A stretch of DNA of 64,000 nucleotides from an uncultured bacterium (GCA_963717085.1 CAVQVM010000013.1:71442-135441), one strand, 5' to 3'. Shown: positions 6,241-58,951, numbered from the stretch's first letter. A program made the numbers and translations. Notes: generated by a model not told the origin, from the letters alone.

Positions 6241-6315
6241 TCGAACTGCGCTCACCACCATGGCGTTCTGTGTTCGCGTTCGGTCCGTGCTCGGCACGAC
6301 CGACTGGGCAGGTCA
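6241..6315 (-). repeat. Degenerate copy of the intergenic palindromic repeat, starting at the LLM gene stop codon
   Basis: Minus strand TGAcctgccc...aacacagaacgcc...gagcgcagttcga. Confidence 0.55.
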
Positions 6316-7252
6316 GGTGCCAGCGAGGCGGTTGACGACCGGCGTCACGGTCTCGATCGAGTCGTCGAACACGGTGAAGTACGAGAAGCCCCAGCGCTCC
6401 CTCGCCGCGAGGACACCTTCGCAAATCGACTCCAACGTGCCAATCCACAAGTACGGGCTGGCCAGGATGTCCTCGACACTCAGCTCAGGCAGGGACTCTC
6501 GGGCACGCTCGGCGGCGCCACGCGGATCGTCGGTCACGATCACGCGTTGGACCAGCGCCTGGAGTTCGACATCGCGCCCGCCAGACGCGGCGCGCACCAG
6601 AGTGACGTGTACATCGACCGCCTCGGGAGCGAGGCCGGCCGTCCCGGTGCGTAGCGCCATCCGATCCTGTCGGTCCGATCCCCGACAGCGAGACAACGTC
6701 GGAACGTTCGGCGGCGACGCGGAGGATTCGGCGTCCGCTGCCCCCGACAAGGATCGGTGGCCGGGGTTGCTGGGTCGGCGCAGGCCACGCTCGGTGGCCA
6801 TTGAGCCGGTAGTGCTCGCCGCTGAAGGTGACGTCGTTACCTCGGAGCAACCCGTCGAGCACCTCGATGGCCTCAGCGAGCCGCGCAACTCGTGTGGCGC
6901 CATCGTCGAAGCCGATGCCGACCGACTCGTACTCGGGCGAGCTCATCGTCGAGCCGGCACCAAGACCGAGCTCCACGCGTCCTCCAGAGAGCGCGTCGAG
7001 CGCCAGAACCTCACGTGCGACCAGCGCAGGGTGGCGCAAGTCGTTGTTGAGCACCAGCGTCCCGATCCGCAAGGCCGAGGTCGCGTCGGCGGCGACGCCG
7101 AGGGCCGCGAACGGTGCGAGGCATCCATCGATGAGGTGGTCGGGAACGGTGAGTACCGAAAACCCCGAGTTCTCGACCAGTCGGGCCAGCGCCACCCACT
7201 CGTCATGGCCCGACCGCGCCAGGACGTGCACGCCGAATCGCAATTTCTTCAC
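6313..7252 (-). CDS. LLM-class (probably F420-dependent) oxidoreductase, frameshift near 6650-6680
   Basis: VPDHL, LRIGTLVLNNDLRHP, LSGGRVELGLGAG, PPILVGGSG; C-terminus SPYLWIGT...RERWGFSYFTV in a second frame. Confidence 0.85.
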
Positions 7253-7492
7253 GGACGCACAGGCTGACACGAACTGGCCCGACGATCAGGACGTCGAGAA
7301 TACCGACGCGCCGTTCGGTACCCGGCGGCCGCCGCCGAGACGGTGTTCGGTAGCGGCGTTCTGTGCGGGGTCCGTGGCCGCGGATCGGCAGATGTGGGCG
7401 GTGTCAGCTCTTCACGGCGAAGAGGCGCGAGTAACTATGCCTGGTCAGCACCGGAGCCGCCGCAGACCGGGTCGGCACTTCGGGGCGGACGC

Positions 7493-8344
7493 TCAGTCGA
7501 GGCGTTTGGCAACAAGCAGGATGCGCCGGGTGTACGGACGCGTTTGGACGGTGAACATCGCTTCGGCGAGCACGCCAGCGGCGGCACGCTCACCGAGGTC
7601 GGCCACGAGAGCGTCTGCGGCGTCGACGAGTGCCTGGAAGGTGCCGTACACCCGTGAAGCCCACCCAGGGGTCTCCTCGTAGGCGTCGACCGCGAAGCCG
7701 GCTGCCTCGACGACGGGCGCGTAGTCGGAGTGCGGATCGACGCCCTGCACAGGGAGCCCGGCGACTATGGACGGGTCCACCTCGAAGCAGACGATCCCGA
7801 TCCGTGCTCCGGGCCGGAGGATGCGGTGAAGCTCGGCGAGGGCGGCCCGCTTGTCGGGCGCGTACTGGAACGCCTCGATGCTGACCGCGCCATCCGCGGA
7901 CGCGTCGGGAAGGCCGGTCTGCTCGAAGGTCCCCTGCTGGAACGTCGCTCGCGACGCGAGCCCTACGTGCTCAGCGCGCTGGCGGGCCGCCGCGAGACCA
8001 GCGGCCGACGGGTCGACGCCGATGAGCGTCGCCCCGGTCTGCTGAGCAGCCCACAGGCCAGGGCCGCCTGCACCGCACGCAACATCGACGAGCACGTCGT
8101 TGCCGCCGAGGCGGAGTAGCTGGAGCAGATGGCGGCCTTCGTCGACGGTGAGAAACCCGATGTGTGCGAAATCGTCTGGGAAGTCAGCTCCATAGGCGTT
8201 GGTGGCCCAGATCTCGGTGAAGACTCTGCTGTTGGGCAGGGCGTCGTACACGGCGTCGTAGCCGTCGAGCACCGCCCGGAAGACGCCGCTGTCTGTGACG
8301 TCGTCGAGGGGACCGGCAGTGGCTTCGTCGGCGATCTCGTTCAT
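7493..8344 (-). CDS. Class I SAM-dependent methyltransferase
   Basis: LVDVACGAGG motif I, GVDPS, ELHRILRPGA. Confidence 0.88.
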   Translation of the reverse strand: MNEIADEATAGPLDDVTDSGVFRAVLDGYDAVYDALPNSRVFTEIWATNAYGADFPDDFAHIGFLTVDEGRHLLQLLRLGGNDVLVDVACGAGGPGLWAAQQTGATLIGVDPSAAGLAAARQRAEHVGLASRATFQQGTFEQTGLPDASADGAVSIEAFQYAPDKRAALAELHRILRPGARIGIVCFEVDPSIVAGLPVQGVDPHSDYAPVVEAAGFAVDAYEETPGWASRVYGTFQALVDAADALVADLGERAAAGVLAEAMFTVQTRPYTRRILLVAKRLD

Positions 8345-8445
8345 CTCGCACCCTTCCCGTATGTCGCCGCGATACTGGTCGATCAGGGACCACGGCCGCA
8401 GGCCGCACTGGCCCGACGCCAGCTCGAGATCGAGGTCCGGAGTCG

Positions 8446-9252
8446 ATGGTCGCCAACGAGCGCTGGGCACAGATGCTGTCGGAGTGGTCGATCCCCCAGG
8501 AGCTGATCGCCGCGGCGCCCGAGCCGCCGTACTTCTTCGACCCGGTCGTGTTCACCGGTGCCGCCGACGAGGCGGTCCGGCGCCCAGACGACACCCCTTC
8601 AGACCGCGCCGCCCGGGAGGCGGTGTCCGTCGGCGGCCGGGTGCTCGATGTCGGTGTGGGCGCCGGCGCCGCCAGCCTCCGGCTCGGCGCCGGATACGTC
8701 ATCGGCGTGGACCCGAGCCGAACGCTGCTCGACGCGTTCGCCGAGCGCGCTGAGCGTCTCGGGGTGGACCCCACCCAGATCGAAGGCGCCTGGCCCGACG
8801 TGGCGACGCAGACCCCCGTGGCCGATGTCGCCGTCTGCCATCACGTCGTCTACAACGTCGCTGACCTCGCTGCGTTCGCCGAGGCCCTGACCGACCACGC
8901 CAGCGCCCGTATCGTGATCGAGCTGACCGCGGTGCACCCGATGACGTGGCTGACGCCCTACTGGAGGTCGCTCCACGGCATCGACCAGCCCGAGCGACCG
9001 ACGGCCGACGATGCCGTGGCGGTGCTCCGGGAGATGGGCCTCACGGTCCACCTCGAGCGGTGGCGGCGCCGGATCCAGATGATCGGCGAGACCAGCAACG
9101 AGCAGCTCAACCGGATCGCTCGGCGCCTGTGCCTCGGGCCGAGTCGGCACGCCGAGCTCCGACGCCTGCTCGAGAAAATCCCGCCGCCGGTCGATCGCGA
9201 CGTCGTGACGCTCTGGTGGCCCGGCGGAGCTGTCGCAAGTTCCACCAACTGA
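8446..9252 (+). CDS. Class I SAM-dependent methyltransferase
   Basis: VLDVGVGAGAAS, GVDPS, DVAVCHHVVYNV. Confidence 0.88.
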   Translation: MVANERWAQMLSEWSIPQELIAAAPEPPYFFDPVVFTGAADEAVRRPDDTPSDRAAREAVSVGGRVLDVGVGAGAASLRLGAGYVIGVDPSRTLLDAFAERAERLGVDPTQIEGAWPDVATQTPVADVAVCHHVVYNVADLAAFAEALTDHASARIVIELTAVHPMTWLTPYWRSLHGIDQPERPTADDAVAVLREMGLTVHLERWRRRIQMIGETSNEQLNRIARRLCLGPSRHAELRRLLEKIPPPVDRDVVTLWWPGGAVASSTN

Positions 9253-9314
9253 CGACGCTGCGCACGGCGTCGTTCGACCTGCGACGAGGGCGACCGGCAC
9301 GCGATGTCACGACG

Positions 9315-9394
9315 CACCGATTGCCCGCACCGAGCGCACCCCCGCCTGCCAATCGGACAGCAGAGAACGGCGCCGCCCGAGATCGACAGGTCTG
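9315..9394 (+). repeat. Intergenic palindromic repeat copy
   Basis: caccgattgcccgcaccgag...ccgcctgcc...cagcagagaacggcg...cgagatcgacaggtctg. Confidence 0.8.
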
Positions 9395-9420
9395 TCGCGC
9401 TGCCGTCGGTCTTGCTTGGA

Positions 9421-9843
9421 TCACTCAATCGGTTGGCCGGAGCTCCGGTCCCCGGGCGACGGCGCCGGATGCCAGCCCGCCCCGTAACCCTCCTCGTGGA
9501 AACGGCGGGCTTGGAGGGCGTCACCGATTGACCCGAAGGTGGCGAGGCAACGGGTGATGTGCCATTTGCGTAGTAGGGCACGGGCGGTGGCCCGGGGACA
9601 CACCAGACAGCACTGGTCGGGATGGTCGCTGGCACCCACGACCCAAGCGGCGAGGCCCATCACGGGTGCGGGCGATACCAACGTGATCTGGCTCAGGTCC
9701 ACGATGACTGGCGCGCCTGCAACCAGCGCCTCGAGCTGATCGACCAGCCCGGAAGGCAAGGGATCATGCAGCGTGCCCAACGGTGTCGCGATCATCACGC
9801 CGTGGCGCTGTTCGAGCGCGGCTCGGAGCGGACCGACCGACAA
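9421..9843 (-). CDS. STAS-like (anti-sigma factor antagonist-like) hypothetical protein
   Basis: GGAAGGAG RBS before TTG 9843; PVIVDLSQITLV, LVCPRATARALLRKWHI...FGSIGDAL resemble STAS elements. Confidence 0.55.
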   Translation of the reverse strand: MSVGPLRAALEQRHGVMIATPLGTLHDPLPSGLVDQLEALVAGAPVIVDLSQITLVSPAPVMGLAAWVVGASDHPDQCCLVCPRATARALLRKWHITRCLATFGSIGDALQARRFHEEGYGAGWHPAPSPGDRSSGQPIE

Positions 9844-10168
9844 CCGCAGCTCCTTCCTCTGCTGCGTCTGGCCGGTTGCCGCGCCGGACCGATTCCGGTC
9901 TTGAGGATGACGGTCGGATCCCCCTGGCCGCTCTTGATGGTGACGGTCGCGTCCCAATGCCCGGGCGCCCGGCGCCACGAGCCCCCGACGCCACAATTTC
10001 TCGGGGCCGGTCCCCGAGGCCGCCATGAGCGGCGGCTCCCGAGTGCCTCGTGCCCCGAGGCCCCCGTCGCGAGCCTCGCGCGCAAACTTGTCGGGGTAGC
10101 CGGACAACCGTCGCATGAGAGGACACCTCCCCCGCGGTGTCCCGCCTCGATCCGCCCGTACCCAATAA

Positions 10169-10247
10169 CGGTGGCCCCGAAACGATCCGTCGCGTGTCGC
10201 TTGCCGGCGGGCGGTACAGAACGCCGTAGCCCTGAGCGGCAGATCTG
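10169..10247 (+). repeat. Intergenic palindromic repeat copy (diverged)
   Basis: cgcttgccgg...gtacagaacgcc...gagcggcagatctg, ending 8 bp before the hydrolase stop codon. Confidence 0.65.
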
Positions 10248-10255
10248 CTGCCGCG

Positions 10256-11026
10256 TCAGGAAGATGGTGGGCTCGCCGAGGATGATAAGCCGGTGCGCCA
10301 CAAGGTGAGCAGTGCCTGGTTGAGGGGTGTCCCGGTGAACTGGACTTCGTGGCCGGCACCCTCGACCACGATTCGTGACGCGCCGATCCGTTCGGCCATG
10401 TCGTCGCAGATGGCGTCGAAGCCGCCGCTGTGGCCCCCAGAGGCGACCAGCTTTGGAAACGAAGCGGCCGCCAGCTCGGCCAACGGCAGGTCGGGATACC
10501 AGATCGGCCGCCCGCGGCGAAGCACCGGCACCAGCGGCACGGCTGCGGCGAGAAATTCGGGGGGGAACTCGTCCGGGTCGCTCCCGACCGCCTTCAGGAA
10601 GCGGACGACCCACTCCTCATCGGGGAGGTCCAGGTCCCAGACACGGCGAACCCCGTCAACGAGCGCCCGCGCCTCGGCATGACTTTGGCCCAATGCGAAC
10701 GCGCCCGGCTCAAGCAGTGCTAGCGATCGGGTCGCATCGGGACGGCGGGCAGCGGCGAACATGACCCCGAGGCCCCCGTAGGAATGACCCACGAGATGGG
10801 CACCGTCACCCATTAGCTCGGCGATGTCGTCGCCGTCACGCAAGAAGTCCTCCCCGTCGGCGGCGGGGCTGTTGCCGTAGCCCCGTCGATCCAGCACCAG
10901 CAGGCGAAAGCCCTCGTCGGCTAGTGGTCGCTGGGCCTCCCATTCCTCGGCGCCGGCAGCCAGCGAGCCGTGCGCGAGCACCACGGGTGTACCAGCACCC
11001 CACGCCTCCACGAAGAGGTCGCTCAC
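10256..11026 (-). CDS. Alpha/beta hydrolase
   Basis: HGS, DRRGYG, GHSYGG nucleophile elbow, GAGH; GAGGAGG RBS before GTG 11026. Confidence 0.9.
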   Translation of the reverse strand: MSDLFVEAWGAGTPVVLAHGSLAAGAEEWEAQRPLADEGFRLLVLDRRGYGNSPAADGEDFLRDGDDIAELMGDGAHLVGHSYGGLGVMFAAARRPDATRSLALLEPGAFALGQSHAEARALVDGVRRVWDLDLPDEEWVVRFLKAVGSDPDEFPPEFLAAAVPLVPVLRRGRPIWYPDLPLAELAAASFPKLVASGGHSGGFDAICDDMAERIGASRIVVEGAGHEVQFTGTPLNQALLTLWRTGLSSSASPPSS

Positions 11027-11222: not shown

Positions 11223-12452
11223 ATGCGAGCTGCCTTCATGCCCGTGCCTGCAGTGTCGAGCGTGAAGGATGTGCATGCCGGCGAGCGGATTGCCTACGTG
11301 CGTCTGCTCAGCGGCACGCTCCGCGTGCGTGACCGTGTGGGCGAGCACACCGTCACGGGCATCGAGGTGTTCGACCGTGCTGCGACCGTCCGCCGGTCAT
11401 GCGCCATCAGCGGCGAGATCGCCAGGGTCTGGGGGCTCGATGAGGTCCGCATCGGCGACACGATCGGCGAGCGACGCGGACACGGCGCCGAGCACCACTT
11501 CGCACCGCCCACACTCGAAACCGTCGTCGTGCCCGACCCCGAGCACCGCCGGGCGCTCCACACCGCGCTCACCCAGCTCGCCGAACAGGACCCGCTCATC
11601 GGCTTGCGCCTCGACGAGGACAGACAGGAGCTGCACCTGTCCCTCTACGGCGAGGTGCAGAAGGACGTCATCCAGGCCGCGCTCGCCGACGACTTTGGCC
11701 TCGACGTCGAGTTCCGCGACACGAGACCGATCTGCATCGAGCGGCCCGTGGGCACGGGCACGGCGATCGAGACGATGCCGCGCGGCCGGTCGGCACAGCA
11801 CCCGTTCCTCGCTGGTGTCGGCCTGCGCGTCGATCCGGCACCGGTCGGTTCGGGTGTCGCCTTCCGCTACGAGATCGAGCTTGGCTCGCTGCCCTCGGCG
11901 TTCATGAATGCGATCGCCGAGACCGTGCCCCAAGCACTGCGCGGAGGCCTCCACGGCTGGGAGGTCACCGACTGCATCGTCACCCTGACGCACTCGCAGT
12001 ACGCGCCACGGCAGAGTCACTCACACCAGGGGTTCAGCAAGGCGATGTCGAGCATCGGCAGCGACTTCCGTCTCCTGACGCCGCTCGTCTTGATGGCTGC
12101 ACTCGGTCGGGCCGGCACGGCCGTGTACGAGCCCATCCACCGCTACGAGCTCGAGATACCCGCCGACACGCTCTCCGTCATAGTGCCGACGCTCGCCCGT
12201 CTGGAGGCGCCGCCACTGGAGCAGACCGCGAGTGGCTCGGCGCTCGTCCTCGGCGGTCAGATCCGCGCCGGGCTCGCGCACGCCCTCCAGACGCATGTGC
12301 GCGAGCTGACCCGCGGCGAAGGGGTGCTCGAAGCAGCCTTCGACAGCTACCAACCAGTGCGCGGCGCACCACCGACGCGGCCCCGCACCGACAACAACCC
12401 GCTGAACCGGAAGGAGTACCTCTTGAACGTGCTCGGCGCGGTCGGGGACTGA
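11223..12452 (+). CDS. TetM/OtrA-family ribosomal protection protein homolog lacking the N-terminal GTPase domain
   Basis: ERIAYVRLLSGTL (domain II), LAEQDP, SLYGEVQK, GLHGWEVTDC, YAPRQSH...DFRLLTPLVL, C-terminal RPRTDNNPLNRKEYLL; no GxxxxGKT or DTPG motifs in or upstream of the ORF. Confidence 0.85.
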   Translation: MRAAFMPVPAVSSVKDVHAGERIAYVRLLSGTLRVRDRVGEHTVTGIEVFDRAATVRRSCAISGEIARVWGLDEVRIGDTIGERRGHGAEHHFAPPTLETVVVPDPEHRRALHTALTQLAEQDPLIGLRLDEDRQELHLSLYGEVQKDVIQAALADDFGLDVEFRDTRPICIERPVGTGTAIETMPRGRSAQHPFLAGVGLRVDPAPVGSGVAFRYEIELGSLPSAFMNAIAETVPQALRGGLHGWEVTDCIVTLTHSQYAPRQSHSHQGFSKAMSSIGSDFRLLTPLVLMAALGRAGTAVYEPIHRYELEIPADTLSVIVPTLARLEAPPLEQTASGSALVLGGQIRAGLAHALQTHVRELTRGEGVLEAAFDSYQPVRGAPPTRPRTDNNPLNRKEYLLNVLGAVGD

Positions 12453-12617
12453 TCTTCGAGCACGGTGTCCTGTGCCTTTGCTGCGTCCATCCCAGAGGCG
12501 CAGTACCGCACCCTTGGCAGGTGAGGCTGATTGGTAGGGAGATCACGTCGTCCGAGCCCATGGGTACAAGCCGACTGCGGTAGTCCGCGTGAAGCTCGCC
12601 TCGATCACGTCTTCCCA

Positions 12618-12658
12618 GATCGTGAGCGCGAAACGACCGGCGCAAGATCGGCAGGTCG
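12618..12658 (+). repeat. 3' half of the intergenic repeat
   Basis: gatcgtgagcgcgaaacgaccggcgcaagatcggcaggtcg. Confidence 0.55.
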
Positions 12659-12852
12659 CGAGCAGGACGCTCCGGACGCGTCGGCGCCGACGACGGCCGG
12701 GCGTGTCGGACTCGCTGATCTCAGCCGTGGGTCGGCCCTGAACGTGGTGGATGCCCGCCGTTTTCGGGGCACGAACTCACCCCAACCGGGTGGGGCTTTC
12801 CCGACGATGAACGTGTCAAGTGCGATCCAGAGACACGAACGAGGGGGACACG

Positions 12853-15615: not shown

Positions 15616-16422
15616 GTGGGCGCGAGACTTTCGACCGTGGCAAAGCGACCGGTCGGGCGAGAGTCGTTTGACAACGTCGCGAATGTGTACGACGAAATCC
15701 GACCCGGATACCCGCCAGCCTTGTACGCAGACCTCTGCAGGTTGCTTCCCCCGCGGCCGCTCATCCTCGAAGTCGGCCCTGGTACGGGACAAGCAACTCG
15801 AGACCTCCTCGCACATGGCGCGCTTGTTGACGCAGTCGAGATCGGACCGGCGATGGCGGCCAAGCTCCGGGAAGTTCTTCGGTCCGATCACCTCAAGGTC
15901 ATAGTCGGCGATTTCGAACAGGTACCGCGAACCGGTCCGCGGTACGACGCGATCTTTTCAGCTACCGCGTATCACTGGATTGCTTCCGACGCGCAACTCG
16001 AACGCCCGACGCGTCTGCTGAAGTCTGGCGGGGTCATTGCGGTAGCCGATATCGTCCAAGTCGACTCCGAGACGGACCATGGGTTCTTCGCTGCCGTACA
16101 GCCGATCTACGAGCGATACGGCCAAGGCCACACCGGTCCGGCCGCACCCAAGAGAGATCAGGTAGAACCGAAAATTCGTCAATCCCTGCAATGCGACCCG
16201 CGGTATTCCAATGTGATGCTCCGAACGTACGACTGGGATCAGACGTACTCCGCGAGTGGGTACCGCAAACTCATGCTCTCGTATTCAGGCACGCAGATGA
16301 TGAAGGAACCCGCGCGAACCGCACTCGTTGATGACATGGAGCACTTCGTTCGCGACCGTTTCGATGACCGCGTCACTCGGCCACTTGTCGTCGCGCTCAC
16401 GACCGCAACGCTCGTTGGCTGA
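15616..16422 (+). CDS. Class I SAM-dependent methyltransferase (lower GC than neighbours)
   Basis: FDNVANVYDEIRPGYP, ILEVGPGTGQAT, SATAYHW. Confidence 0.9.
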   Translation: MGARLSTVAKRPVGRESFDNVANVYDEIRPGYPPALYADLCRLLPPRPLILEVGPGTGQATRDLLAHGALVDAVEIGPAMAAKLREVLRSDHLKVIVGDFEQVPRTGPRYDAIFSATAYHWIASDAQLERPTRLLKSGGVIAVADIVQVDSETDHGFFAAVQPIYERYGQGHTGPAAPKRDQVEPKIRQSLQCDPRYSNVMLRTYDWDQTYSASGYRKLMLSYSGTQMMKEPARTALVDDMEHFVRDRFDDRVTRPLVVALTTATLVG

Positions 16423-16426
16423 GAGC

Positions 16427-16507
16427 GCACGATGCCCGAACCGAGCGCCCACCGTCTGCTCGGCGGTCAGCACAGAACGACAGGGCGCGAGATCGGCAGC
16501 CATGTGC
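16427..16507 (+). repeat. Intergenic palindromic repeat copy, 4 bp after the methyltransferase stop
   Basis: gcacgatgcccgaaccgagcgccc...gtcagcacagaacgacagggcgcgagatcggcagccatgtgc. Confidence 0.88.
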
Positions 16508-16789
16508 TCCCACAAGCGTCGGCGTCGCTGGTCACTTCGTTGACGGAGCGATGCCCGCGAACCGGGCAGGCTGCGATCCGTTCCTCCTGCGTGCGAGGAG
16601 CGAACATGGCCCCTACACGGGACGTGTAGGTGGTGGGCGCTCCTTGGGACGACGATGAACTGATTCTGAACCGCCGATCGGTCGCGTTTCCTGACAAGCA
16701 CCGATGAGTCTGCGAACGGCGTTCCGTCACAAGGTTGCACCACGTGGTGCGGCGAGAGCCGACGGCCGCCTGAACGAGGAGGAGACGGA

Positions 16790-17865: not shown

Positions 17866-18564
17866 ATGAACCCAGGCTCACGAGTCAACAACATCGTTCT
17901 CGTCCACGGCGGGTTCGTGGACGGGTCCGGCTGGCAGGCCGTCTACAACCTCCTGAAGGAGGACGGCTACAACGTCAGCATCGTCCAGAACCCGACTCTG
18001 TCCCTGGAGGGCGACGCCGAAGCCACCCGGCAGATCATCGACGCGCAGGACGGCCCCGTCGTCCTGGTCGGCCACTCCTACGGCGGAGCCGTGATCACCG
18101 AGGCGGGGAACAACGACAACGTGGCCGCACTCGTCTACATCGCGGCGTTCGCGCCGGACAACGGCGAGTCGGTGAACACGCTGATTGCAGACCCGCCGCC
18201 GGGCGCACCGGTGCCGCCGATACTGCCGCCGCAGGACGGCTTCCTGTTCCTCGACCGTGACAAGTTCCATGCGTCCTTCGCTGGTGACCTGCCGGCCGAT
18301 GAGGCCGCGTTCATGGCCGACTCGCAGGTCCCGTGGGGCGTCGACGCCCTCGGCGGGTCGATCACCCAGGCTGCTTGGCGTGGCAAGCCGACCTGGTACC
18401 TGGTGGCGACCGAGGACCGGATGATCCCCCCACCGGCGCAACGCGTCATGTCCGCGCGGGCGGGTTCGACGGTGGTCGAGGCCGCCGGCAGCCACGCCAT
18501 CTACGTCTCCAAGCCGGCCGCAGTGGTGGCGCTCATCGAGCAGGCCGCGTCCGGGACTCTGTAA
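17866..18564 (+). CDS. Alpha/beta hydrolase
   Basis: IVLVHGGFVDGSGW, GHSYGG, DRMIPP, GSHA. Confidence 0.92.
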   Translation: MNPGSRVNNIVLVHGGFVDGSGWQAVYNLLKEDGYNVSIVQNPTLSLEGDAEATRQIIDAQDGPVVLVGHSYGGAVITEAGNNDNVAALVYIAAFAPDNGESVNTLIADPPPGAPVPPILPPQDGFLFLDRDKFHASFAGDLPADEAAFMADSQVPWGVDALGGSITQAAWRGKPTWYLVATEDRMIPPPAQRVMSARAGSTVVEAAGSHAIYVSKPAAVVALIEQAASGTL

Positions 18565-18586
18565 CGCCGGCCGGTCGGACGCGGGT

Positions 18587-18668
18587 GACCTCGCCGAACC
18601 GCCCGCCTGCACGACGGACCAAAGGCGCCGACAGAACAGCACGCGACGGCGCGAGATCGGCAGTTCGG
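18587..18668 (+). repeat. Intergenic palindromic repeat copy (diverged)
   Basis: tcgccgaaccgcccgcctgc...acagaac...ggcgcgagatcggcagttcgg, 22 bp after the hydrolase stop. Confidence 0.72.
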
Positions 18669-18827
18669 CTCTACTCGACCGACGATCGCTCCTCGGCAAG
18701 CTGGAGCAACAGCCACGGCCAGTAGACGAACGCGGCTGACCCTAGGAGCAACCCCCGCCGCGGCGAGCATGGCCGGGCGATCCTGAGCGAGTCGAGGCTC
18801 CCGTCGGCGTTCCCGGCGACTGGGTGC

Positions 18828-23639: not shown

Positions 23640-24359
23640 ATGATCGTGGAACGCGACGTGGACTGCGGGATCGTCTACCAGCGGCTACGTCGACGCCTGA
23701 TGGCAACGGTTCGCTCGTTGGACAGTGATGTGCTCGCTCTCACCGTGCCGGCGACGCCGGCCTGGTCGGTGCGTGACGCGGTGGCACACGTGATCGGGAT
23801 CGCTCACGATCTCAACGCCCAGCGCTTCGACGTGACCGACCCCGACGAATGGACGGCCCGTCAGGTTCGGGAACGGCGTGATGCCACCATCGACGACCTC
23901 GAGGTCGAGTGGGACCGCGAGGCCCCGCGCTTTGAGGAAGGCCTGCGGTTGATGGGCTACGAGGTCGGCAGCCACTTCGTGGGCGACTTGCTGCACCACG
24001 CGGCCGACATCCACCACGCGGTCGGCCTCGGGCCAATCGACGACGACGACGAGGCTCTGGCCGTGGGCCTCGACTTCTACCTCGACACATGCCACAAGGA
24101 CCTCGTGGCCCATGATCGGGGTTCTCTCGGCGTACAGGCGAACGACCCGCCCCAGGACCGATGGACGCTCGGCGCAGGCCGCGAGGTCGCGACGCTCGAA
24201 GCGACCCGCTACGAGCTCTTCCGCGCCCTCGGCGGCCGACGTAGCCAACGCCAGCTCCGCTCCATGACGTGGACCGGTGACGTCGACGAGGTCGTCGGAG
24301 TGCTCACCAGCTACGCACCACCGATCCACGACCTCATCGAGACGTCATCGACCTCCTGA
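23640..24359 (+). CDS. Maleylpyruvate isomerase-family mycothiol-dependent (DinB-fold) protein
   Basis: VPATPAWSVRDAVAHV, DLLHHAADI, LFRALGGRRS. Confidence 0.85.
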   Translation: MIVERDVDCGIVYQRLRRRLMATVRSLDSDVLALTVPATPAWSVRDAVAHVIGIAHDLNAQRFDVTDPDEWTARQVRERRDATIDDLEVEWDREAPRFEEGLRLMGYEVGSHFVGDLLHHAADIHHAVGLGPIDDDDEALAVGLDFYLDTCHKDLVAHDRGSLGVQANDPPQDRWTLGAGREVATLEATRYELFRALGGRRSQRQLRSMTWTGDVDEVVGVLTSYAPPIHDLIETSSTS

Positions 24360-24408
24360 ACCGCGTGCTGTCCCCAAACGCCGGGTCTGGGCGACGACCG
24401 CACTAACG

Positions 24409-24480
24409 CCGAATGCCCGAACACCCTCACCTGTCGGATCGTCAGCACAGAACGACGGGACGCGAGATCAGGCAGATATG
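24409..24480 (+). repeat. Intergenic palindromic repeat copy
   Basis: ccgaatgcccgaac...cacctgtcggatcgtcagcacagaacgacgggacgcgagatcaggcagatatg. Confidence 0.88.
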
Positions 24481-24823
24481 GGCGGCCCTCCACAAAAATC
24501 GCGCCCGCGATTCGAGCGGCACGATCGGCGCCGGGGCGCAGCGCGTAGGCGCTGCGAGCCTGACGCGCCCGATCCTCGGTTCAAGAGGTGCGCTTCCCGG
24601 GATCCGGTCGAGGGACTGCAAGTACCGGCACCCCTTTGCCCTGCGGACGACAAAGGGTTGAAGCCACGCACGCCGTCACAGCAAATCGGAGACTCCGGTC
24701 GACAGCCATTGACATGCCAACATGGGTGGTGCAGCCTGGCACTGAAGGCGGACATCGTCTTCGGCGGGCCGGCGGATGAGGCGGATCGGTGGTTCGCGTC
24801 CAAACACTATGAGGAGGCGGGCC

Positions 24824-25090
24824 TTGAAGCGTTTCGTTATCGTCCTTTCGATATCGCTTTTGGCAGCTCTTGGATTGAACACCGGCATTGCGAGTGCTGG
24901 CCAGCCGGCGAACCAGGCATGCGTCGGTGAGAGCCTGTCGGCGCTGGCGTCCAACCAGGAGGACCCGGGTCAATTTGGGCAGGCCACTCGTGGCTTTGCT
25001 CAGCTCCCAGGTCCCCATGGCGGAAACATCCAAGCCTTCCAGGCGGGTGTGGTCGGCGATGACATAGTGCCGAACACCTGCAACGACTAA
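24824..25090 (+). CDS. Small secreted protein with two Cys (88 aa)
   Basis: GAGGAGG RBS, TTG start, signal peptide MKRFVIVLSISLLAALGLNTGIASA; followed by a terminator. Confidence 0.75.
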   Translation: MKRFVIVLSISLLAALGLNTGIASAGQPANQACVGESLSALASNQEDPGQFGQATRGFAQLPGPHGGNIQAFQAGVVGDDIVPNTCND

Positions 25091-25111
25091 CTCGTTTGCA
25101 CTGAAGCGGCG

Positions 25112-25146
25112 AGCGGCACCCTTGGCGTTCTTCGGGGTGCCGCTTT
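25112..25146 (+). terminator. Probable intrinsic terminator
   Basis: agcggcaccc...gggtgccgct stem ending in a short T run, 21 bp after the stop. Confidence 0.6.
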
Positions 25147-25167
25147 GCCTATTCCGCACTCGCCGCC

Positions 25168-25243
25168 CGTAATGCCCGAACCGCGCACGCCTCGCCCGCC
25201 AGCCGTCAGCACAGAACGCCGAGGCGCGAGACCGGCAGTTCGG
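25168..25243 (+). repeat. Intergenic palindromic repeat copy
   Basis: aatgcccgaaccgcg...tcgcccgccagccgtcagcacagaacgccgaggcgcgagaccggcagttcgg. Confidence 0.88.
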
Positions 25244-25324
25244 CGCTAGCTGTTGATCTCGCCCGCCTCACGAGCGCGGCGCCGATCCTCATCGAAATCG
25301 GCCTGCCAAGCTCCGCGCTCGCCT

Positions 25325-33008: not shown

Positions 33009-33049
33009 CGGGCCACTGTGCGGCCGGTGCCGCCGGGGCCACCGATCGG

Positions 33050-33090
33050 TGCCTACCGGCCGGGCCTCGTCGTTCTGTAGGCGGGCACGA
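33050..33090 (-). repeat. Shortened copy of the intergenic repeat
   Basis: Minus strand tgcccgcctacagaacgacgaggcccggccggtaggc. Confidence 0.5.
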
Positions 33091-33290
33091 ACCTCACGCT
33101 GGAGGGGCCGAGCCCCCTCTCCATGTGCATCGCCGAGAGGACGAAGCGTTCTATGTCCTTGAGGGTGAGTACAGCGTCTTCATTGCGGACGACGTGATCA
33201 CGGCGTCTCCAGGCACCTGGTCTGGGGACCGCGAGGTGTGCCGCACGGTTATCAGGTCCATTCGGAGCGCGGCCCGCATCTGAGCCTCGT
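33085..33290 (+). pseudogene. Cupin fragment lacking its N-terminus
   Basis: PPLHVHRREDEAFYVLEGE, then frameshifted PRGVPH. Confidence 0.7.
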
Positions 33291-48745: not shown

Positions 48746-48758
48746 CCCGCGCCGCAAG

Positions 48759-53397: not shown

Positions 53398-53505
53398 CAC
53401 ACCGCGAGATGACGGGGTTTCACCGGCTGCGACCGGCCGTGACTGGCGCCCGTGCGCTATGTGTCGGGGGCGATTCAAGGTTTGGTAGGTGGGAAGGAAA
53501 CGCGT

Positions 53506-53584
53506 ACCGATTGCCCGAATCGCGGACTGCTCGCCTGCCGGGTCGTCAGCACAGGACGACGGTGCGCGAGATCAGGCAGGTCTG
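53506..53584 (+). repeat. Intergenic palindromic repeat copy
   Basis: accgattgcccgaatcgcg...tcgcctgccgggtcgtcagcacaggacgacggtgcgcgagatcaggcaggtctg. Confidence 0.88.
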
Positions 53585-53734
53585 TCGCGGTGTGTGCTGT
53601 CCTGGATCGGCACATCGGTGACGCGGCCGCCGGTTCGAAACACCGGCCGGCTCCACTCGTCCGGACTCCCCTTGCCGACACAATCACTTCGATAGGGTCG
53701 GGTTCACTTTCACCCGATCGGAGGGGAGTTCGAC

Positions 53735-54577
53735 ATGGCATCAATTTCCGAGCGGGAGAACCGGGAGATCGAGGCGGCCAAAACCTCTGGCAACACCCCG
53801 GTCGTCTTCATCCACGGCCTCTGGCTGCTGCCGAGCAGCTGGGCCAACTGGGCGGACTTCTTCAAGCAGGCCGGCTACGCGCCGCTGACGCCGGACTGGC
53901 CAGACGATCCGGAAACGGTTGAAGAGGCCCGGGCGAACCCGGACGTTCTCGCCAAGAAGACCTTGGAGCAGGTGGCCGATCACACCACCGAGATCATCAA
54001 TGCCTTGGACAAGAAACCAGCGGTGATGGGGCACTCGACCGGGGGATTGCTGGCGCAGATGCTCGCGGGCCGGGGCCTCTCGGCGGCGACGGTGGCGATC
54101 GACCCCGGAGTCTTCCGCGGCGTTCTGCCTCTGCCTGCGTCGGTGCTCAGGGGGGTGGGCCCGTTCCTGGTCAACCCGCTCACGCGCGGCCGCGCGATCA
54201 CGCTCACGTTCGACCAGTTCAAGTACGGCTGGACGAACGCGCTGGACGAGAAGGAGGCGAAGGAGCTCTACGACACGTTCCACGTTGCGGGCTCCGGGAT
54301 TGCTCTCGTGCAGATGGGCAACGCGAACCTCAACCCGTGGACGGAGGCGAAGGTGAACACGAAGAACCCCGACCGCGGTCCCCTGCTGATCATCGACGGC
54401 GAGAAGGACCACACGGTGCCGTGGGCGATCGCGAACGCCGCCTTCAAGCGGCAGAGGCGCAACCCCGCCGTGACGGAGATCGTGAAGATGCCGAACCGGG
54501 GCCACTCGCTCACGATCGACCACGGCTGGCGCGAGGTCGCCCAGACGGCGCTCGACTTCGTCAAGCGGTTCGCCTAG
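53735..54577 (+). CDS. Alpha/beta hydrolase
   Basis: VVFIHGLW, GHSTGG, DHTVP, RGHSL. Confidence 0.92.
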   Translation: MASISERENREIEAAKTSGNTPVVFIHGLWLLPSSWANWADFFKQAGYAPLTPDWPDDPETVEEARANPDVLAKKTLEQVADHTTEIINALDKKPAVMGHSTGGLLAQMLAGRGLSAATVAIDPGVFRGVLPLPASVLRGVGPFLVNPLTRGRAITLTFDQFKYGWTNALDEKEAKELYDTFHVAGSGIALVQMGNANLNPWTEAKVNTKNPDRGPLLIIDGEKDHTVPWAIANAAFKRQRRNPAVTEIVKMPNRGHSLTIDHGWREVAQTALDFVKRFA

Positions 54578-54794
54578 GAGGAGGTTTCCTGGCGCCGGCG
54601 GTGGGCCAAGCCTCCCTGCACGCGAGTCACGGTCCTTCGATCGCGGCGATCTCTCATCTAGCGGCGTCGACCTGCGGCGACTCGGCCGTGCCGCCCGAGG
54701 GCGTCAGCACTAGCCCTCCGGCATCTCCCGCCGGCAGCGGAGGTCGGAGGGCGAGAGCAAAGCCCCGAAACGCCGGGCAGGTAGCGCCGCGGCG

Positions 54795-54877
54795 CACCGA
54801 TTGCCCGCACCGCGCTGGGGCTGCCACCGATGCCGCCGCTACAGATCGCCGGGGGCGCGGCGAGATCGGGAGATCTG
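54795..54877 (+). repeat. Intergenic palindromic repeat copy, subtype A
   Basis: caccgattgcccgcaccgcgctggggctgcca...ctacagatcgcc...gcgagatcgggagatctg. Confidence 0.8.
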
Positions 54878-54961
54878 AGCGCGTGTCGGTGGCCATCAGG
54901 AACTGTCCGGGGGGCGGTCAGAGTGGTGCCTGCTGACGGCCAGCGCTGAGCATTTGCGTGG

Positions 54962-55315
54962 CTAACCGTCAAGAACGTTCCACTGATCGATCACCCACCG
55001 CCAAGTGCCGTCGGGCTGGCGGCGAGCGACTTCAGCAGTCACCCCGCCATCGAGGAGGCGAGTCGAGCCCAGCGCCAAGTCACCGACTCGAAGGGAAGGC
55101 TGCTGATCCCCCAGTGTCAGATTCACCCCCGAGGCGACGAAGTCCTTGAACACCTGACGGATTGCCTCGCTCCCAACCGCCACCCTCCCGGGCTGGACGG
55201 CCATCGCAGCGTGCGGCTCGTAGAGCGCTACCAGGCCTTCGACGTCGCCTGCATTCACGCGTTCCACATAGAGGCGCTCAAGGTCCTCGGGCTCAACTGC
55301 GGGTACGTTCGCCAT
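54962..55315 (-). CDS. SnoaL/NTF2-like (YybH family) protein
   Basis: NAGDVEGLVALYEP, EVARRQPDGTWRWVID. Confidence 0.88.
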   Translation of the reverse strand: MANVPAVEPEDLERLYVERVNAGDVEGLVALYEPHAAMAVQPGRVAVGSEAIRQVFKDFVASGVNLTLGDQQPSLRVGDLALGSTRLLDGGVTAEVARRQPDGTWRWVIDQWNVLDG

Positions 55316-55320
55316 CGCGC

Positions 55321-55397
55321 CAGGTTGCCCGCTGCTTGCGGACCCCGCCTGTCGGTTCGTCAGCACAGAACGACGGGGCGCGAGATCGGCAGGTCTG
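55321..55397 (+). repeat. Intergenic palindromic repeat copy, 5 bp from the SnoaL ATG
   Basis: caggttgcccg...ccgcctgtcggttcgtcagcacagaacgacggggcgcgagatcggcaggtctg. Confidence 0.9.
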
Positions 55398-55431
55398 GCC
55401 TGATGGGTGGTGCAGTCGCTTCTCCGCTGCC

Positions 55432-55797
55432 TCACCACGCACACAGGCAGAAGAGGTGACCGACCGGGTCGGCGTACACGCGGAACTTGTCTTGCGTGTC
55501 GAGATGCCGTGCGCCAAGCGCAATCGCGCGTTCGTGTGCCGCTTCGAGGTCATCCACCGCCAGGTCCAGGTGCATTTGCTGCGGGACGGCCGGATCAGGC
55601 CAGGTCGGCGCGGTGAACTCGAGAGCACGCTGAAACGTGAGTGCCGTGCCCCCGCCCGGCGGATCGATGGCGACGAAATCGCCGTCGCTGTCGGGCACGG
55701 GCCACTCGAGCAAAGCGCCGTAGAACGTGGCGAGGGCGCGTGGGTCGGGACAGTCGATGGTCACGGTGTCGAAACGGGGAACGTTGGGGCCGGGCAT
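55432..55797 (-). CDS. VOC family protein
   Basis: IDCPDPRALATFY, QQMHLDL, YADPVGHLFC. Confidence 0.9.
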   Translation of the reverse strand: MPGPNVPRFDTVTIDCPDPRALATFYGALLEWPVPDSDGDFVAIDPPGGGTALTFQRALEFTAPTWPDPAVPQQMHLDLAVDDLEAAHERAIALGARHLDTQDKFRVYADPVGHLFCLCAW

Positions 55798-56028
55798 GAC
55801 GACCTCCTGGCGAGGTGAGCAACCCCGTGGGCAGCCGGCGAGGTCTACGGACCCGAACAGAATGCCCTGATGATTGTCTGAGCGCACGGAGCTGCGGGTG
55901 GTCGTAGCTTCGTGCGCTCACACAATCATCAGGGCAATATGTACTCCGAGGCGGCAGGGGCGGATGGTGCGTCTCGCCCTGATCGCTCGGCGCCGTGCGA
56001 GACAGAGACCGCCCCAAGAGGTAGCGCA

Positions 56029-56835
56029 ATGCCGTTGTACATGGATCGCCACGAGTTCGACGACAGCGTCACCCCTCTCGACATCGCACAGGCACACGCT
56101 CGCGACGTCGAGGTGCAGGCAAAATACGCCGTCGACTACATCACGTACTGGTTCGATCATCAGCGCGGAGCCGGTTTCTGTTTGGTTGACGGGCCGTCAG
56201 CCGAGGTTGTCGAAACTGTTCATCGCGAGGCGCATGGAATGGTCGGTACCAACGTGATCGAAGTTGATCGGGCAGCCGTCGAGGCGTTCCTCGGCCACCT
56301 GGACCGTCCTGTCACGGGCGAGGCGTTCGTGGCGACCGCGTTCCGGGCCATCCTGTTCACCGACATCGTCGGTTCGACTGAACTCACGCAGCGGCTCGGA
56401 GACGCTGGTGCCATGCGAGTCATCCGAGCCCACGACGCCATCGTGAACGATGCGATCCGCCGGGGGGGCGGCCAGCGGGTGAAGCACACCGGCGACGGCG
56501 TGATGGCGTCCTTCACCTCTGTGAGTCGCGCCGTGGAGACCGCGATCGCGATCCAGCGAGCGGTTACGGAGCGCAGCCGCCGCGACGAAGTGCCGTTCGA
56601 GATCCGCGCTGCGGTTAGTGCCGGTGAGCCAGTCACCGAAGGCGATGATCTCTTCGGTGCTGCCGTTCAGCTCGCGGCTCGGGTGTGCTCCACGTGCGAG
56701 CGCGGTCGCGTGTTGGTGTCGAGCGCGGTGCGCGAGCTGTGCGTCGGCAAGGGCCTTCAGTTCGAGGACAAGGGTCTTGTCGAACTCAAGGGCTTCGACG
56801 AGCCCATACACCTCTACGGGGTGATTTGGACCTGA
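56029..56835 (+). CDS. DUF4242 domain fused to a class III adenylate/guanylate cyclase
   Basis: MPLYMDRH...AHARD...FCLVDGP...VHREAHG; LFTDIVGST, VKHTGDG, DLFG, LAAR, LKG. Confidence 0.88.
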   Translation: MPLYMDRHEFDDSVTPLDIAQAHARDVEVQAKYAVDYITYWFDHQRGAGFCLVDGPSAEVVETVHREAHGMVGTNVIEVDRAAVEAFLGHLDRPVTGEAFVATAFRAILFTDIVGSTELTQRLGDAGAMRVIRAHDAIVNDAIRRGGGQRVKHTGDGVMASFTSVSRAVETAIAIQRAVTERSRRDEVPFEIRAAVSAGEPVTEGDDLFGAAVQLAARVCSTCERGRVLVSSAVRELCVGKGLQFEDKGLVELKGFDEPIHLYGVIWT

Positions 56836-56940
56836 AGTCGGATCTCGACACCTCAGGGGGATGGGCGGCTCATCGTGGGGGGCTGATCACCAGCTTCACG
56901 GGTCGCGACTTCCAGCCCCAAGGCCCGCTACACCAGGCGC

Positions 56941-57018
56941 CAGATCCGCCGATCTCGCGACTCGTCGTTCTGTACCCCGGATCCGGTGGGCAGCGTGTGC
57001 TCGCACCGGGCCAATCTG
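56941..57018 (-). repeat. Intergenic palindromic repeat copy
   Basis: Minus strand cagattggcccg...gtacagaacgacgagtcgcgagatcggcggatctg. Confidence 0.82.
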
Positions 57019-57067
57019 CGCCTCCACCGGCGTGAGCGGCTCAATGGAATCACTTACCAGCCATCAT

Positions 57068-57829
57068 TCAGCGATCGGCGGCCGCGTCGAGGGCGGGACG
57101 AAGAGCGGCTTCGTCGAACCCGTAGCGGGCCATCATCTCCAGATGCCCGGCTGTACCCAGGATGCGCCGCAGTTGCCCATCGAACGCATGGGCCAACTCA
57201 CGCGACGCACTGTGGAACGAGAACGCACCGAGCGGCAAGCCACGTCGCTCGCCAGCGCGGCTATCCGCGACCGATACCAGCCGTGGATCGCCCAACCTCG
57301 TGATGTAGGCGACGTTGCCGGGTGCGGTGCTGACCGAAGCGTCCGCGACACCGGCGAGCACGGCTGATGCTGCCGCGTCTTGGTCTGCAAACTCCACGAT
57401 CCGGTCGCTCGGCACACCGGCTCGGAGTGCGGTCTCCACCTGCATCTGGCCAGTGACAGCAGCGAGACGAATCGAGTCATCGTCAGCGATCGCGTCGTAG
57501 CTCGTGAAGTCGCGGACATCGCTTGATCGGACGATGAAGCTGTCGGTCGCCGCCCAGACCGGCACGCTGAATCGAACGCGCCGCGAACGCTCAGCTGTGA
57601 TGAACATCGGCGCGTTGATGTGCCAACGCCTCGACGTGACGCCGTCGATCAGTTCACCGAATGTCGTGAGCACGAAGTCAACACGACGGACGCCGAGGGC
57701 ACCTAGAACCATCCCGGTCAACTCGATGTCGCAGCCGGTCGGATCCGCGCCATCGCCAGGCATGAAGTAGGGCGGCTCGTCCAGATACGCAACCGCGCAG
57801 CGCTGGCGCCACGTCGCGGGATCAATCAC
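57068..57829 (-). CDS. Polar amino-acid ABC substrate-binding protein (EhuB-like), orphan
   Basis: EPPY, GCDIEL, MFITAER...FSVP; no permease adjacent. Confidence 0.8.
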   Translation of the reverse strand: MIDPATWRQRCAVAYLDEPPYFMPGDGADPTGCDIELTGMVLGALGVRRVDFVLTTFGELIDGVTSRRWHINAPMFITAERSRRVRFSVPVWAATDSFIVRSSDVRDFTSYDAIADDDSIRLAAVTGQMQVETALRAGVPSDRIVEFADQDAAASAVLAGVADASVSTAPGNVAYITRLGDPRLVSVADSRAGERRGLPLGAFSFHSASRELAHAFDGQLRRILGTAGHLEMMARYGFDEAALRPALDAAADR

Positions 57830-57874
57830 GCCTTCAACCTTGGATCACGCGATCAGCGCTGGATAGGCCCCACC

Positions 57875-57951
57875 CACATCTGCCGATCTCGCGCCGCGTC
57901 GTTCCGTGTTGACGGTCTGGCGAGCGGCGGGCACTCGGGTCGGGCAACCTG
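57875..57951 (-). repeat. Intergenic palindromic repeat copy
   Basis: Minus strand caggttgcccgaccc...ccgtcaacacggaacgacgcggcgcgagatcggcagatgtg. Confidence 0.88.
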
Positions 57952-58000
57952 TATCCGTGGCCCGGTCAGATCTCGCCGTTTGACGCGGACTTCGGTCACT

Positions 58001-58815
58001 TCAGATGGTGACCGCGAAGAGTCGCCATGCGGCGGGTATGCCTTTGAGTTCGTGCTCGCCGCGGTCGTCGAAAGTCGTACCCGAGCCTGCCACGAGATCG
58101 ACGACCGTCCGCGACACGAGCACTTCACCAGGCTGTGCGGTTTCGCACACGCGACATGCGAGGTGGACGGCGATGCCCGCCACCTCGGTGCCGCGTCGTT
58201 CGACTTCACCGGTGTGGATCCCGACGCGGACGTCGAGGCCGATCTGGCGGGCGGCGTCGCGGATCGCGGTCCCGCAACGGATCGCCCGGGCGGGGCCGTC
58301 GAAGGTGGCGAGCATGCCGTCACCGGTGAGCCTTTCTTGGTGACCCGAGAAGCGCGCCAGTTGTCGGCGCACGGCCTCGTCGTGGAGGTCGAGCACCGTC
58401 CGCCAGGCCCGGTCGCCGACGGTGGCGAGCTGGTCGGTGGAACCGACCACGTCGGAGAACAACAGGGTGGTGAGCTCCGAGTGCGGTCGACGGCCACGCG
58501 GGTGCCGGTCAGGAACTCTTCGATCTCGTCGACGACGACGGGATCCACAGCCGAACCCAAGAACACCTGAAGGTCGGCGCCGGGAAGCTCCACCAGCCGG
58601 GCATTCGGGATGTGTTGGGCGAGATACCGGCCATGCTCGATGGGAAGGAAGCGGTTCTCCACTGTGTGCAAGACGAGCGTCGGCGCACTGATGGCCGGCA
58701 GGACCGCTCGTACGTCCGTCGCGTACAGCTGACGCATGATCGCGCGAACTCTGAACGCCAGCCGGGCGTCCCCACTGATCGCGTAGCGGACATCGACCTC
58801 GGTGTCCACGGCCAC
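58001..58815 (-). pseudogene. LipJ-like alpha/beta hydrolase-adenylate cyclase fusion with hydrolase core deleted and a frameshift near 58490
   Basis: VRYAISGDARLAFRV joined to RAIMRQLYATDVRAVLPAISAPTLVLH; LFSDVVGST, TGDG, RVGIHTGE, ELKG. Confidence 0.8.
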
Positions 58816-58875
58816 ATCGTCGCGCCCTGTCGACGAGCAAACCACGCCGGCCCTACGCAAGTCGCGCTGCCGCGC

Positions 58876-58951
58876 CAGATCTGGCGATCTCGCGCCTTGG
58901 CGATCTGTAGGGCCGGCCTCGCTGGCAGCCCGAGCGCGGTCCGGCAATCTG
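58876..58951 (-). repeat. Intergenic palindromic repeat copy, subtype A
   Basis: Minus strand cagattgccggaccgcgctcgggctgcca...ctacagatcgccaaggcgcgagatcgccagatctg. Confidence 0.85.

Follow-up and report, generated by a model that had tools for sequence, protein, structure and literature searches.

The stretch of DNA considered here, called the window throughout, comprises 64,000 nucleotides from an uncultured bacterium (GCA_963717085.1, CAVQVM010000013.1:71442-135441) and corresponds to G000:C13:71442-135441, where G000 is the genome assembly (5.12 Mb, 26 contigs, ~69% G+C, 93% complete) and C13 the contig. Scattered between its genes lies a family of intergenic repeats, of which an earlier note, made from the sequence alone, had listed 15 copies, taking them for candidate recombination sites of an integron-like system of gene capture. 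The family itself is real. The core motif of the repeat has seven matches in the window at ≤3 mismatches against 0.76 expected, and the 3' box motif has 12 against 0.33, the observed count being reached by none of 100 shuffles for either motif. A covariance model (CM) trained on 48 copies from five genomes and run over the whole window with filters off returned ten strong copies at 64-85 bits, all ten of them training rows of the model itself, and three degenerate or partial copies from outside the training set (18580-18678, 10154-10257, and 12574-12670); an independent nhmmer profile recovers the same 13. Because of these ten strong and three degenerate matches, 13 of the 15 listed copies stand. 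Of the other two, the minus-strand copy placed at 6241 has no match at E≤1 in the unfiltered CM search of the window, and the one placed at 33050, also on the minus strand, is only the marginal match given last in the following list of features.

9303..9404, plus strand: full copy, CM 68.8 bits (training row), also found by nhmmer; 54 bp past the co-oriented methyltransferase gene 8446-9249 (Pfam)
10154..10257, plus strand: degenerate copy, CM 26.8 bits, E 1.9e-4, non-training, nhmmer 21.9 bits; touches the stop end of a minus-strand alpha/beta-hydrolase gene (Pfam)
12574..12670, plus strand: partial copy (3' half), CM 22.0 bits, E 0.003, nhmmer model positions 31-77; downstream of a truncated EF-G-like open reading frame (ORF)
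16414..16514, plus strand: full copy, CM 84.0 bits; conserved part 4 bp past the stop of the methyltransferase ORF 15616-16422 (Pfam), as correctly placed at 16427 in the earlier note
18580..18678, plus strand: partial copy (3' half conserved), CM 28.4 bits, E 7e-5, non-training; directly past a hydrolase gene ending at 18564 (Pfam)
24395..24490, plus strand: full copy with a short central deletion, CM 64.0 bits, alignment; past a DinB/MDMPI-like gene ending at 24359
25154..25253, plus strand: full copy, CM 76.7 bits; ~0.7 kb from the preceding copy, the intervening ORF 24581-25159 being without a Pfam match
53493..53594, plus strand: full copy, CM 84.6 bits
54783..54887, plus strand: full copy, CM 64.2 bits; past the hydrolase gene 53735-54577
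55307..55407, plus strand: full copy, CM 82.2 bits; between minus-strand SnoaL-like and glyoxalase-like genes (Pfam), opposite to the gene direction
56931..57032, minus strand: full copy, CM 67.7 bits; in a convergent gap
57865..57965, minus strand: full copy, CM 84.6 bits; between two minus-strand single genes (Pfam)
58866..58965, minus strand: full copy, CM 79.6 bits; between two minus-strand single genes
33034..33106, minus strand: marginal match, not counted as a member, CM 15.6 bits, E 0.13, without an nhmmer match

Each copy measures ~90-100 bp and can be parsed into three parts, a 5' box (the TTGCCCG region), a variable center that falls into three or four subfamilies and bears the conserved ACAGAACGAC motif, and a 3' box (the GCGAGATCGGCAG region), with boundaries that taper off and no sharp ends. 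The Rfam comparison proposed in the earlier note places no family on the repeats: there are no matches at the gathering score over the window, and the two weak ones obtained at E≤1 over 53.0-59.2 kb both lie off the repeat. One repeat copy compared by blastn with the PLSDB plasmids and INPHARED phages likewise gave no match.

Across G000, an iterated nhmmer profile finds ~92 copies on 12 of the 26 contigs, and these are strongly clustered: 71 of the 92 have a neighbor within 3 kb, against a mean of 9.2 and a maximum of 25 under random placement. Within such arrays the copies point the same way: of 50 adjacent pairs ≤3 kb apart, 48 are on the same strand, and the co-oriented share drops from 95% at distances up to 3 kb to ~50% beyond 10 kb; the multi-copy loci of other genomes are co-oriented in seven of seven cases. 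Adjacent copies show no significant excess of likeness (0.699 versus 0.682 for random pairs, p = 0.055), and L035 and L039 are arrays whose repeats all point one way while their Pfam-supported genes switch between strands. Local duplication therefore does not account for the arrays, since adjacent copies are unlike, and neither does gene direction, since the orientation is uniform across alternating genes. Orientation also flips between arrays 1-50 kb apart, and the repeat direction therefore does not follow the replication arm.

The copies are intergenic with a preference for gene 3' ends, as judged in G000 from gene calls that, beyond the Pfam-checked ORFs, come from a crude codon-score caller of our own, by which 84.6% of the genome is called coding. 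Convergent gaps hold 33 of the 92 copies versus a genome-wide share of 405 of 2568 gaps, while tandem gaps hold 42 and divergent gaps 17. A stop codon is faced by 109 of the 184 flanking sides versus ~44% from genome-wide gap counts—by the 3' side in 62 of the 92 copies and by the 5' side in 47—and 11 copies lie ≤21 bp from one. The earlier description of the repeats as standing downstream of a co-oriented gene holds within the window, but on other contigs the opposite relation is the more frequent in tandem gaps, 29 versus 13. Similarly, the single-gene units that had been proposed hold at 53.5-59 kb only, whereas the array at 9-25 kb consists of stretches of 0.7-5.7 kb with 0 to ~7 genes of mixed direction. 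Both G000 C18 104-113 kb and window 56.9-59 kb show a layout with one gene per inter-repeat gap, all co-directional, which does not hold in window 9-25 kb or in the arrays L035 and L039. The genes that do lie between copies encode small accessory enzymes: GNAT, glyoxalase, methyltransferase, hydrolase, and SnoaL.

Gene-free clusters also occur: at G000 C4:88492-89739 four copies stand 200-520 bp apart, and other such clusters lie at C19:525499-525635 and C11:228293-228498, among them two copies overlapping in tandem and two copies 57 bp apart.

The repeat is a favored landing site of at least four lineages of IS110-family insertion sequences (IS), elements with an RNA-guided DEDD enzyme, which enter it at fixed points. 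Repeat copies with an aberrant 3' end turn out to be copies split by such elements: a 1.43-kb IS, present in three copies (99.3-99.9% pairwise, BLAST), splits the 3' box between GATCG and GCAG, with the rest of the box lying past the other end of the IS. Against the NCBIfam IS110 model NF033542, a protein of 341 amino acids (aa) and one of 385 aa score 155.9 and 163.9 bits (cut-off 140); two further IS110 lineages encode proteins of 335/321 aa and 390 aa, and PF01548 and PF02371 are found in four lineages. The lineages abut the repeat at model positions ~13-19, 66-70, and 71-75, i.e., in both arms. In G000, 13 of 25 IS110 loci lie ≤500 bp from a repeat; in another genus, 4 of 11 IS110 matches fall inside a 20-kb repeat cluster, and the association recurs in the genomes G022, G006, and G003. 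The IS110 elements at repeats in G000 are as follows.

C18:9663-11094
C5:136.8-138.2 kb
C11:159.2-160.65 kb
C18:12017-13432, the same element as C2:722.85-724.26 kb
C5:139.09-141.0 kb
C4:84.57-86.03 kb

A parallel might be struck with sequences of the repetitive extragenic palindromic (REP) kind, which in Escherichia coli are the target of the IS110-family element IS621. REP sequences are already described as targets of this family, e.g., of ISPpu9 and ISPpu10 in Pseudomonas putida (PMC1525189, 10.1101/2025.01.17.633520), and these targets, like the family in question, are dispersed extragenic repeats of dyad symmetry, linked to genome plasticity and struck by IS110-family elements at fixed positions in a fixed direction (PMC1525189, 10.1101/2025.01.17.633520, 10.64898/2026.03.19.712850). 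In contrast to REP, the family here is longer (~90-100 bp), has no stable hairpin and no REP-associated tyrosine transposase (RAYT), is concentrated in accessory islands as co-oriented arrays and not spread chromosome-wide, and is used by at least four IS110 lineages at two or three points.

The IS110 elements also furnish a minor observation of their own. In the locus L029, two sub-threshold matches to the Rfam family ncrMT1302, a Mycobacterium small RNA, were met at L029:9747-9841 (+) and L029:12086-12176 (+), with 37.6 and 25.4 bits against a gathering score of 45. Both are on the strand opposite to a transposase gene: one occupies the non-coding end of the first IS110 element, adjoining the 3' end of that element's transposase gene, and the other overlaps the 3' end of the transposase gene in the second element. 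The RNA family may be related to an IS110 guide RNA.

The distribution of the repeat is narrow. It is present in 8 of 10 same-genus genomes and was not found in G002; among 14 genomes of other genera of the same family it occurs in three, one of them strongly, as a single 20-kb cluster with up to 92% identity; and it is in none of 16 genomes from other families of the same order. These tallies, like those on synteny, integrase, RAYT, and tyrosine recombinase below, include the unpublished genomes G008 and G024, and no conclusion rests on them alone; the locus L003 (G008) is included in the mosaic, subfamily, homology-end, and array-protein comparisons. Of 86 loci picked by motif pattern from among the matches listed and searched with the CM, 17 have strong matches, 16 of these 17 being labelled Acidimicrobiales, Ilumatobacteraceae, Actinomycetota, or "uncultured bacterium"; 66 of the 86, again among the matches listed, have no CM match at E≤0.001, and most loci outside the Acidimicrobiales/Actinomycetota labels are unsupported. 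The borderline matches in that list include Streptomyces at 28.1 bits and Stellaceae at 28.4 bits. A pattern scan of IMG/VR gave six loci with one CM match, which at a borderline 28.2 bits was treated as chance. The exception among the 17 strong loci is L096, a 1.6-kb contig labelled Gemmatimonadaceae, which carries a copy of 78.2 bits and may be mis-binned.

Within the genome, the copies occupy gene-end gaps of its most plastic, accessory parts. A core control, G000 C2:300-320 kb, has no repeat, and relatives match it collinearly at 84-91% identity. For window 51-61 kb and 26-46 kb, homology to relatives is confined to scattered pieces, mostly of ~1 kb and 88-96% identical, which in those relatives lie on different contigs or far apart; the relatives' loci are in turn mosaics of pieces from different G000 contigs, some of which abut without a spacer (L012, L006, L010). 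The hydrolase gene 53735-54577 is kept together with a repeat copy in the relative L011 and without one in the relatives L012-L014. Among the signs that the earlier note had named as speaking against recombination sites are copies spread evenly among core genes and gene order conserved across relatives; what is found instead are clustered, co-oriented arrays of unlike copies in accessory regions that are scrambled between relatives, whereas the core control is collinear. For breakpoints inside the repeat, which the note had proposed to look for, the outcome is divided. Among 142 homology ends, compared in loci chosen for holding repeats or window genes and therefore giving biased shares, a repeat lies nearby in both genomes at 8, in the relative only at 18, in G000 only at 31, and in neither at 85. 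Repeats do coincide with homology breakpoints and hybrid copies exist, but no fixed crossover point was found, and no filled/empty site pair is seen among the 142 ends.

Two side observations concern this plasticity. The accessory pieces of window 26000-61000, mostly single-gene and arranged differently in every genome, are 88-96% identical between species, equal to or above the 84-91% of the collinear core. At G000 C5 ~210.70-210.76 kb a ~40-nt remnant, resembling the two boxes minus the center, stands where the relative L040:2897-2962 has a full repeat past the orthologous gene.

Traces of exchange are also seen inside the repeats. In the self-comparison of G000, a 983-bp duplicate of 99.6% identity starts at repeat position 27, the 5' parts upstream of it being unlike, and other recent duplicates start or end within repeat copies. 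Linkage between variable alignment columns is significant for 119 of 339 pairs within the center and 5 of 18 within the 5' box, against 3 of 224 between the 5' box and the center, 10 of 222 between the center and the 3' box, and 0 of 64 between the two boxes. The three parts of the repeat thus assort independently, with the borders of the linkage blocks coinciding with the IS110 insertion points; the independent assortment fits exchange between copies in the conserved boxes.

Some further material bears on duplication and rearrangement. G000 C15:66140-69624 and C18:20070-23555 are duplicates of one multi-gene segment of 3.5 kb, 99.4% identical; in C15 it lies between two IS-interrupted repeats and in C18 without repeats, where a ~32-bp direct repeat is found within ~110 bp of each end. 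Of 24 listed sequencing runs, 20 contain some of window 51.5-61 kb, the best of them with 0.51 of the sampled words. Repeat-to-repeat joints met in short Logan contigs from four runs (53541>55361, 55392>53530, and 54815>55361) were not used, because the shorter side measures 35-36 nt in the first two and they could equally stem from other copies of the family; no inference was drawn from these or from uneven depth. A 595-nt contig from an RNA library, with five differences, spans 55031-55625 across the copy 55307-55407, which is not proof of transcription.

As for folding, the terminal inverted repeat described in the earlier note is real at the consensus level: the 5' and 3' boxes are inverted copies of each other, with 77% of cells paired in that helix (columns 18-25 with 105-113), and over the whole tested structure 76% of cells pair, versus 23-41% when the partners are slid by one to three columns. 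This arm pairing rests almost wholly on invariant columns, and in the variable columns it is at chance level by our own count. Covariation in the long stem is weak: 10 pairs are changed on both sides versus 7.9 in shuffles, and neither this nor a second robust measure is significant, the observed values being reached in 64 and 88 of 500 shuffles, respectively. Nor are the copies unusually stable. For single-stranded DNA (ssDNA) the folds of the 10 window copies have z between -0.86 and +1.55, with none of the 10 below -1, and 58 copies folded as RNA show no gain in stability over dinucleotide shuffles (mean z of -0.25 on one strand and -0.27 on the other). The single long bulged stem that had been claimed for the copy at 58876 is replaced in the ssDNA minimum-energy fold by two separate hairpins, z = -0.86. 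The sole helix to covary is another one, a small 4-bp hairpin in the variable center (columns 41-44 with 56-59). Its pair 44-56 is GC in 12 copies, AU in 10, UA in 10, and GU in 8, with 6 of 47 unpaired, and the structure tested with this hairpin has 36 further pair types versus 29.1 in shuffles, reached by 1 of 500. A model of a 5' hairpin, an ACAGA hairpin, and a 3'-box hairpin was discarded (23 further pair types versus 23.2 in shuffles; 308 of 500 reach), and RNAalifold on MAFFT alignments gave no consensus over all copies and only fragments per subfamily.

The reading of these patterns to which we give about an even chance is that of a new REP-like intergenic repeat family in an uncultured Acidimicrobiales lineage, which acts as a hotspot of both insertion and recombination, with exchange between copies. 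The exchange is what we infer from the sequence comparisons. Copies would recombine with one another through crossovers in the conserved boxes, joining and reshuffling the flanking blocks of one to a few genes. Circular segments might be inserted via recombination between two directly oriented copies, which would leave direct repeats on both sides and would explain arrays of unlike, co-oriented copies, and the exchange might be assisted by the IS110 copies at the same two points. Several observations weigh against this account. At 85 of the 142 homology ends there is no detected repeat nearby, and where there is one it is usually in one genome only; the homology breakpoints share no one position, the BLAST ends inside the conserved repeat being fuzzy; the conserved boxes measure only 7-16 nt, a short length for homologous recombination of the ordinary kind; and for exchange between copies no enzyme was identified. 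The missing linkage between the parts could in some measure reflect recurrent mutation, some clusters have no genes between their copies and two copies overlap in tandem, the gene calls outside the Pfam-checked ORFs rest on the crude caller, and none of the recombination events was observed directly. If the hotspot reading is true, a poorly known soil lineage has one host repeat to which several lineages of IS110 (bridge-RNA) elements have converged, and this would offer a natural set of guide-and-target pairs (bridge or seek RNAs) and a marker of the plastic part of the genome.

A somewhat unlikely alternative is that the repeats are the att-like sites of a dedicated, non-integron cassette system, in which circles of one to a few genes are integrated at the conserved boxes, and cut out again, in a fixed direction, either by a site-specific recombinase yet to be named or by an IS110-type DEDD enzyme with a repeat-matching guide RNA; such a system would build a gene-by-gene mosaic across Acidimicrobiales. 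It would accommodate the co-orientation of unlike copies irrespective of gene direction, the small accessory enzymes, the single co-directional genes with one repeat per gap in G000 C18 104-113 kb and window 56.9-59 kb, the repeats at synteny breakpoints with their hybrid copies, and the independent assortment of three parts with borders at the IS110 insertion points. It could also call upon an XerC/D-like tyrosine recombinase that stands at the array end in both G000 C18 and L035, the two proteins being 56% identical to each other. As a repeat-specific partner, however, this recombinase was rejected: G003, G006, and G007 carry repeats but gave no match to this query, three genomes of other families have the recombinase and lack the repeat, and several of its copies have stop codons. 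On the integron integrase model TIGR02249 it scores 72.6 bits (cut-off 265), and none of the 11 genus genomes has a match over that cut-off, the best reaching 66.7 bits. Besides IS110, no recombinase was seen to recur next to arrays. In a protein clustering of six-frame ORFs, biased because the loci had been selected for containing repeats or window genes, IS110 is, homologues of window genes aside, the only protein family beside arrays in at least three genomes. Further against such a system are the lack of a stable ssDNA fold, the variable breakpoints, the many units with no gene or with several of mixed direction, the presence of the same genes in relatives without any repeat, and a repeat direction relative to the gene that differs among arrays. 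If it nonetheless existed, Actinomycetota would have cassette capture using sites and an enzyme other than those of integrons, with a direct bearing on the one-at-a-time spread of accessory genes in soil bacteria.

The closest relative of the tyrosine recombinase at C18:13478-14443 is G022:C1:445142-446107, 91% identical although from a different genus; both lie beside an IS110 element or fragment, and the gene probably travels on a shared mobile element.

We do not regard the repeat as an attC system of the integron type, equipped with an integrase of its own. Integrons are reportedly lacking in Actinomycetota, and integrase-less arrays of attC sites are known as CALIN. The integron analogy drawn in the earlier note holds for the behavior of the arrays: like attC/CALIN, these are co-oriented sites a few hundred to a few thousand bp apart, with two or more on one strand within <~4 kb, small accessory genes between them, and a cassette content that varies among relatives. 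It does not extend to the sites themselves. In the consensus of the 48-row alignment there are no RYYYAAC/GTTRRRY cores and, in their place, the TTGCCCG and GCGAGATCGGCAG boxes; there is no strong bottom-strand hairpin, no IntI, and no single crossover point; and the units often hold no gene or several in mixed direction. Another shared trait is targeting by the IS110/IS1111 superfamily, attC sites being hit by IS1111-attC elements (PMC11187229).

The pdif (XerC/D) modules of Acinetobacter plasmids are a further parallel, in which short recombination sites bracket small gene modules in varied contexts. The repeats share this bracketing of small modules in different contexts, but differ from pdif in that no dif-like 11-6-11 site is visible, and in being direct repeats and not alternating ones, chromosomal, and without a PLSDB match.

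It is decidedly unlikely that the family is a selfish, non-autonomous element of the kind of miniature inverted-repeat transposable elements (MITE) or REPIN, mobilized by a transposase in trans, with strand-specific (e.g., ssDNA) insertion as the source of the local co-orientation. ERIC and Correia elements are intergenic repeats that may be compared alongside MITEs. By the definitions of MITE-type intergenic repeats in the account cited (PMC3184786), the family resembles these in its size class, terminal inverted repeats (77% of helix cells paired), intergenic position, and diverged subfamilies, and the reading also draws on the number of copies (~92), their patchy presence beside orthologous genes between species, the adjacent or tandem copies without a gene between, and the G-U excess in the covarying hairpin, which points to a single folding strand. 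It is opposed by the strong local co-orientation with flips between arrays 1-50 kb apart, by the fading boundaries, and by the failure to find its hallmarks: there is no target-site duplication at any offset (at best 12 of 50 for 2-mers and 3 of 48 for 4-5-mers) and no filled/empty pair, and self-comparison around all copies met no parent IS or longer element with the same ends. Matches to Y1/RAYT (PF01797) number none in G000, and within the genus one of 11 genomes has one, G002, where the repeat was not found. The REP/MITE alternative named in the earlier note also fails the tests by which it is defined, the RAYT and the target-site duplication.

Finally, it is very improbable that the repeat is a passively carried host cis-element—a two-way terminator, a stabilizer of mRNA ends, or a protein-binding site selected at gene ends—for although the excess of sides facing a stop codon, the convergent gaps, the 11 copies close to stops, the boxes conserved as sequence, and the one covarying hairpin would suit it, the folds are no more stable than shuffles, no T-run is seen in the consensus on inspection without a terminator scan, 17 copies lie in divergent gaps, and such an element alone cannot account for co-orientation against genes, confinement to plastic islands, or the lack of copies in the 20-kb core control.

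Among the genes between the copies, one ORF of the window deserves separate mention. It lies at 11223-12449 on the plus strand, upstream of the partial copy at 12574, and encodes 409 aa with matches to EF-G domains III, IV, and C and to EF-Tu domain 2 but none to a GTPase domain (Pfam); it may be a truncated or diverged gene of the ribosomal-protection or EF-G-like kind.

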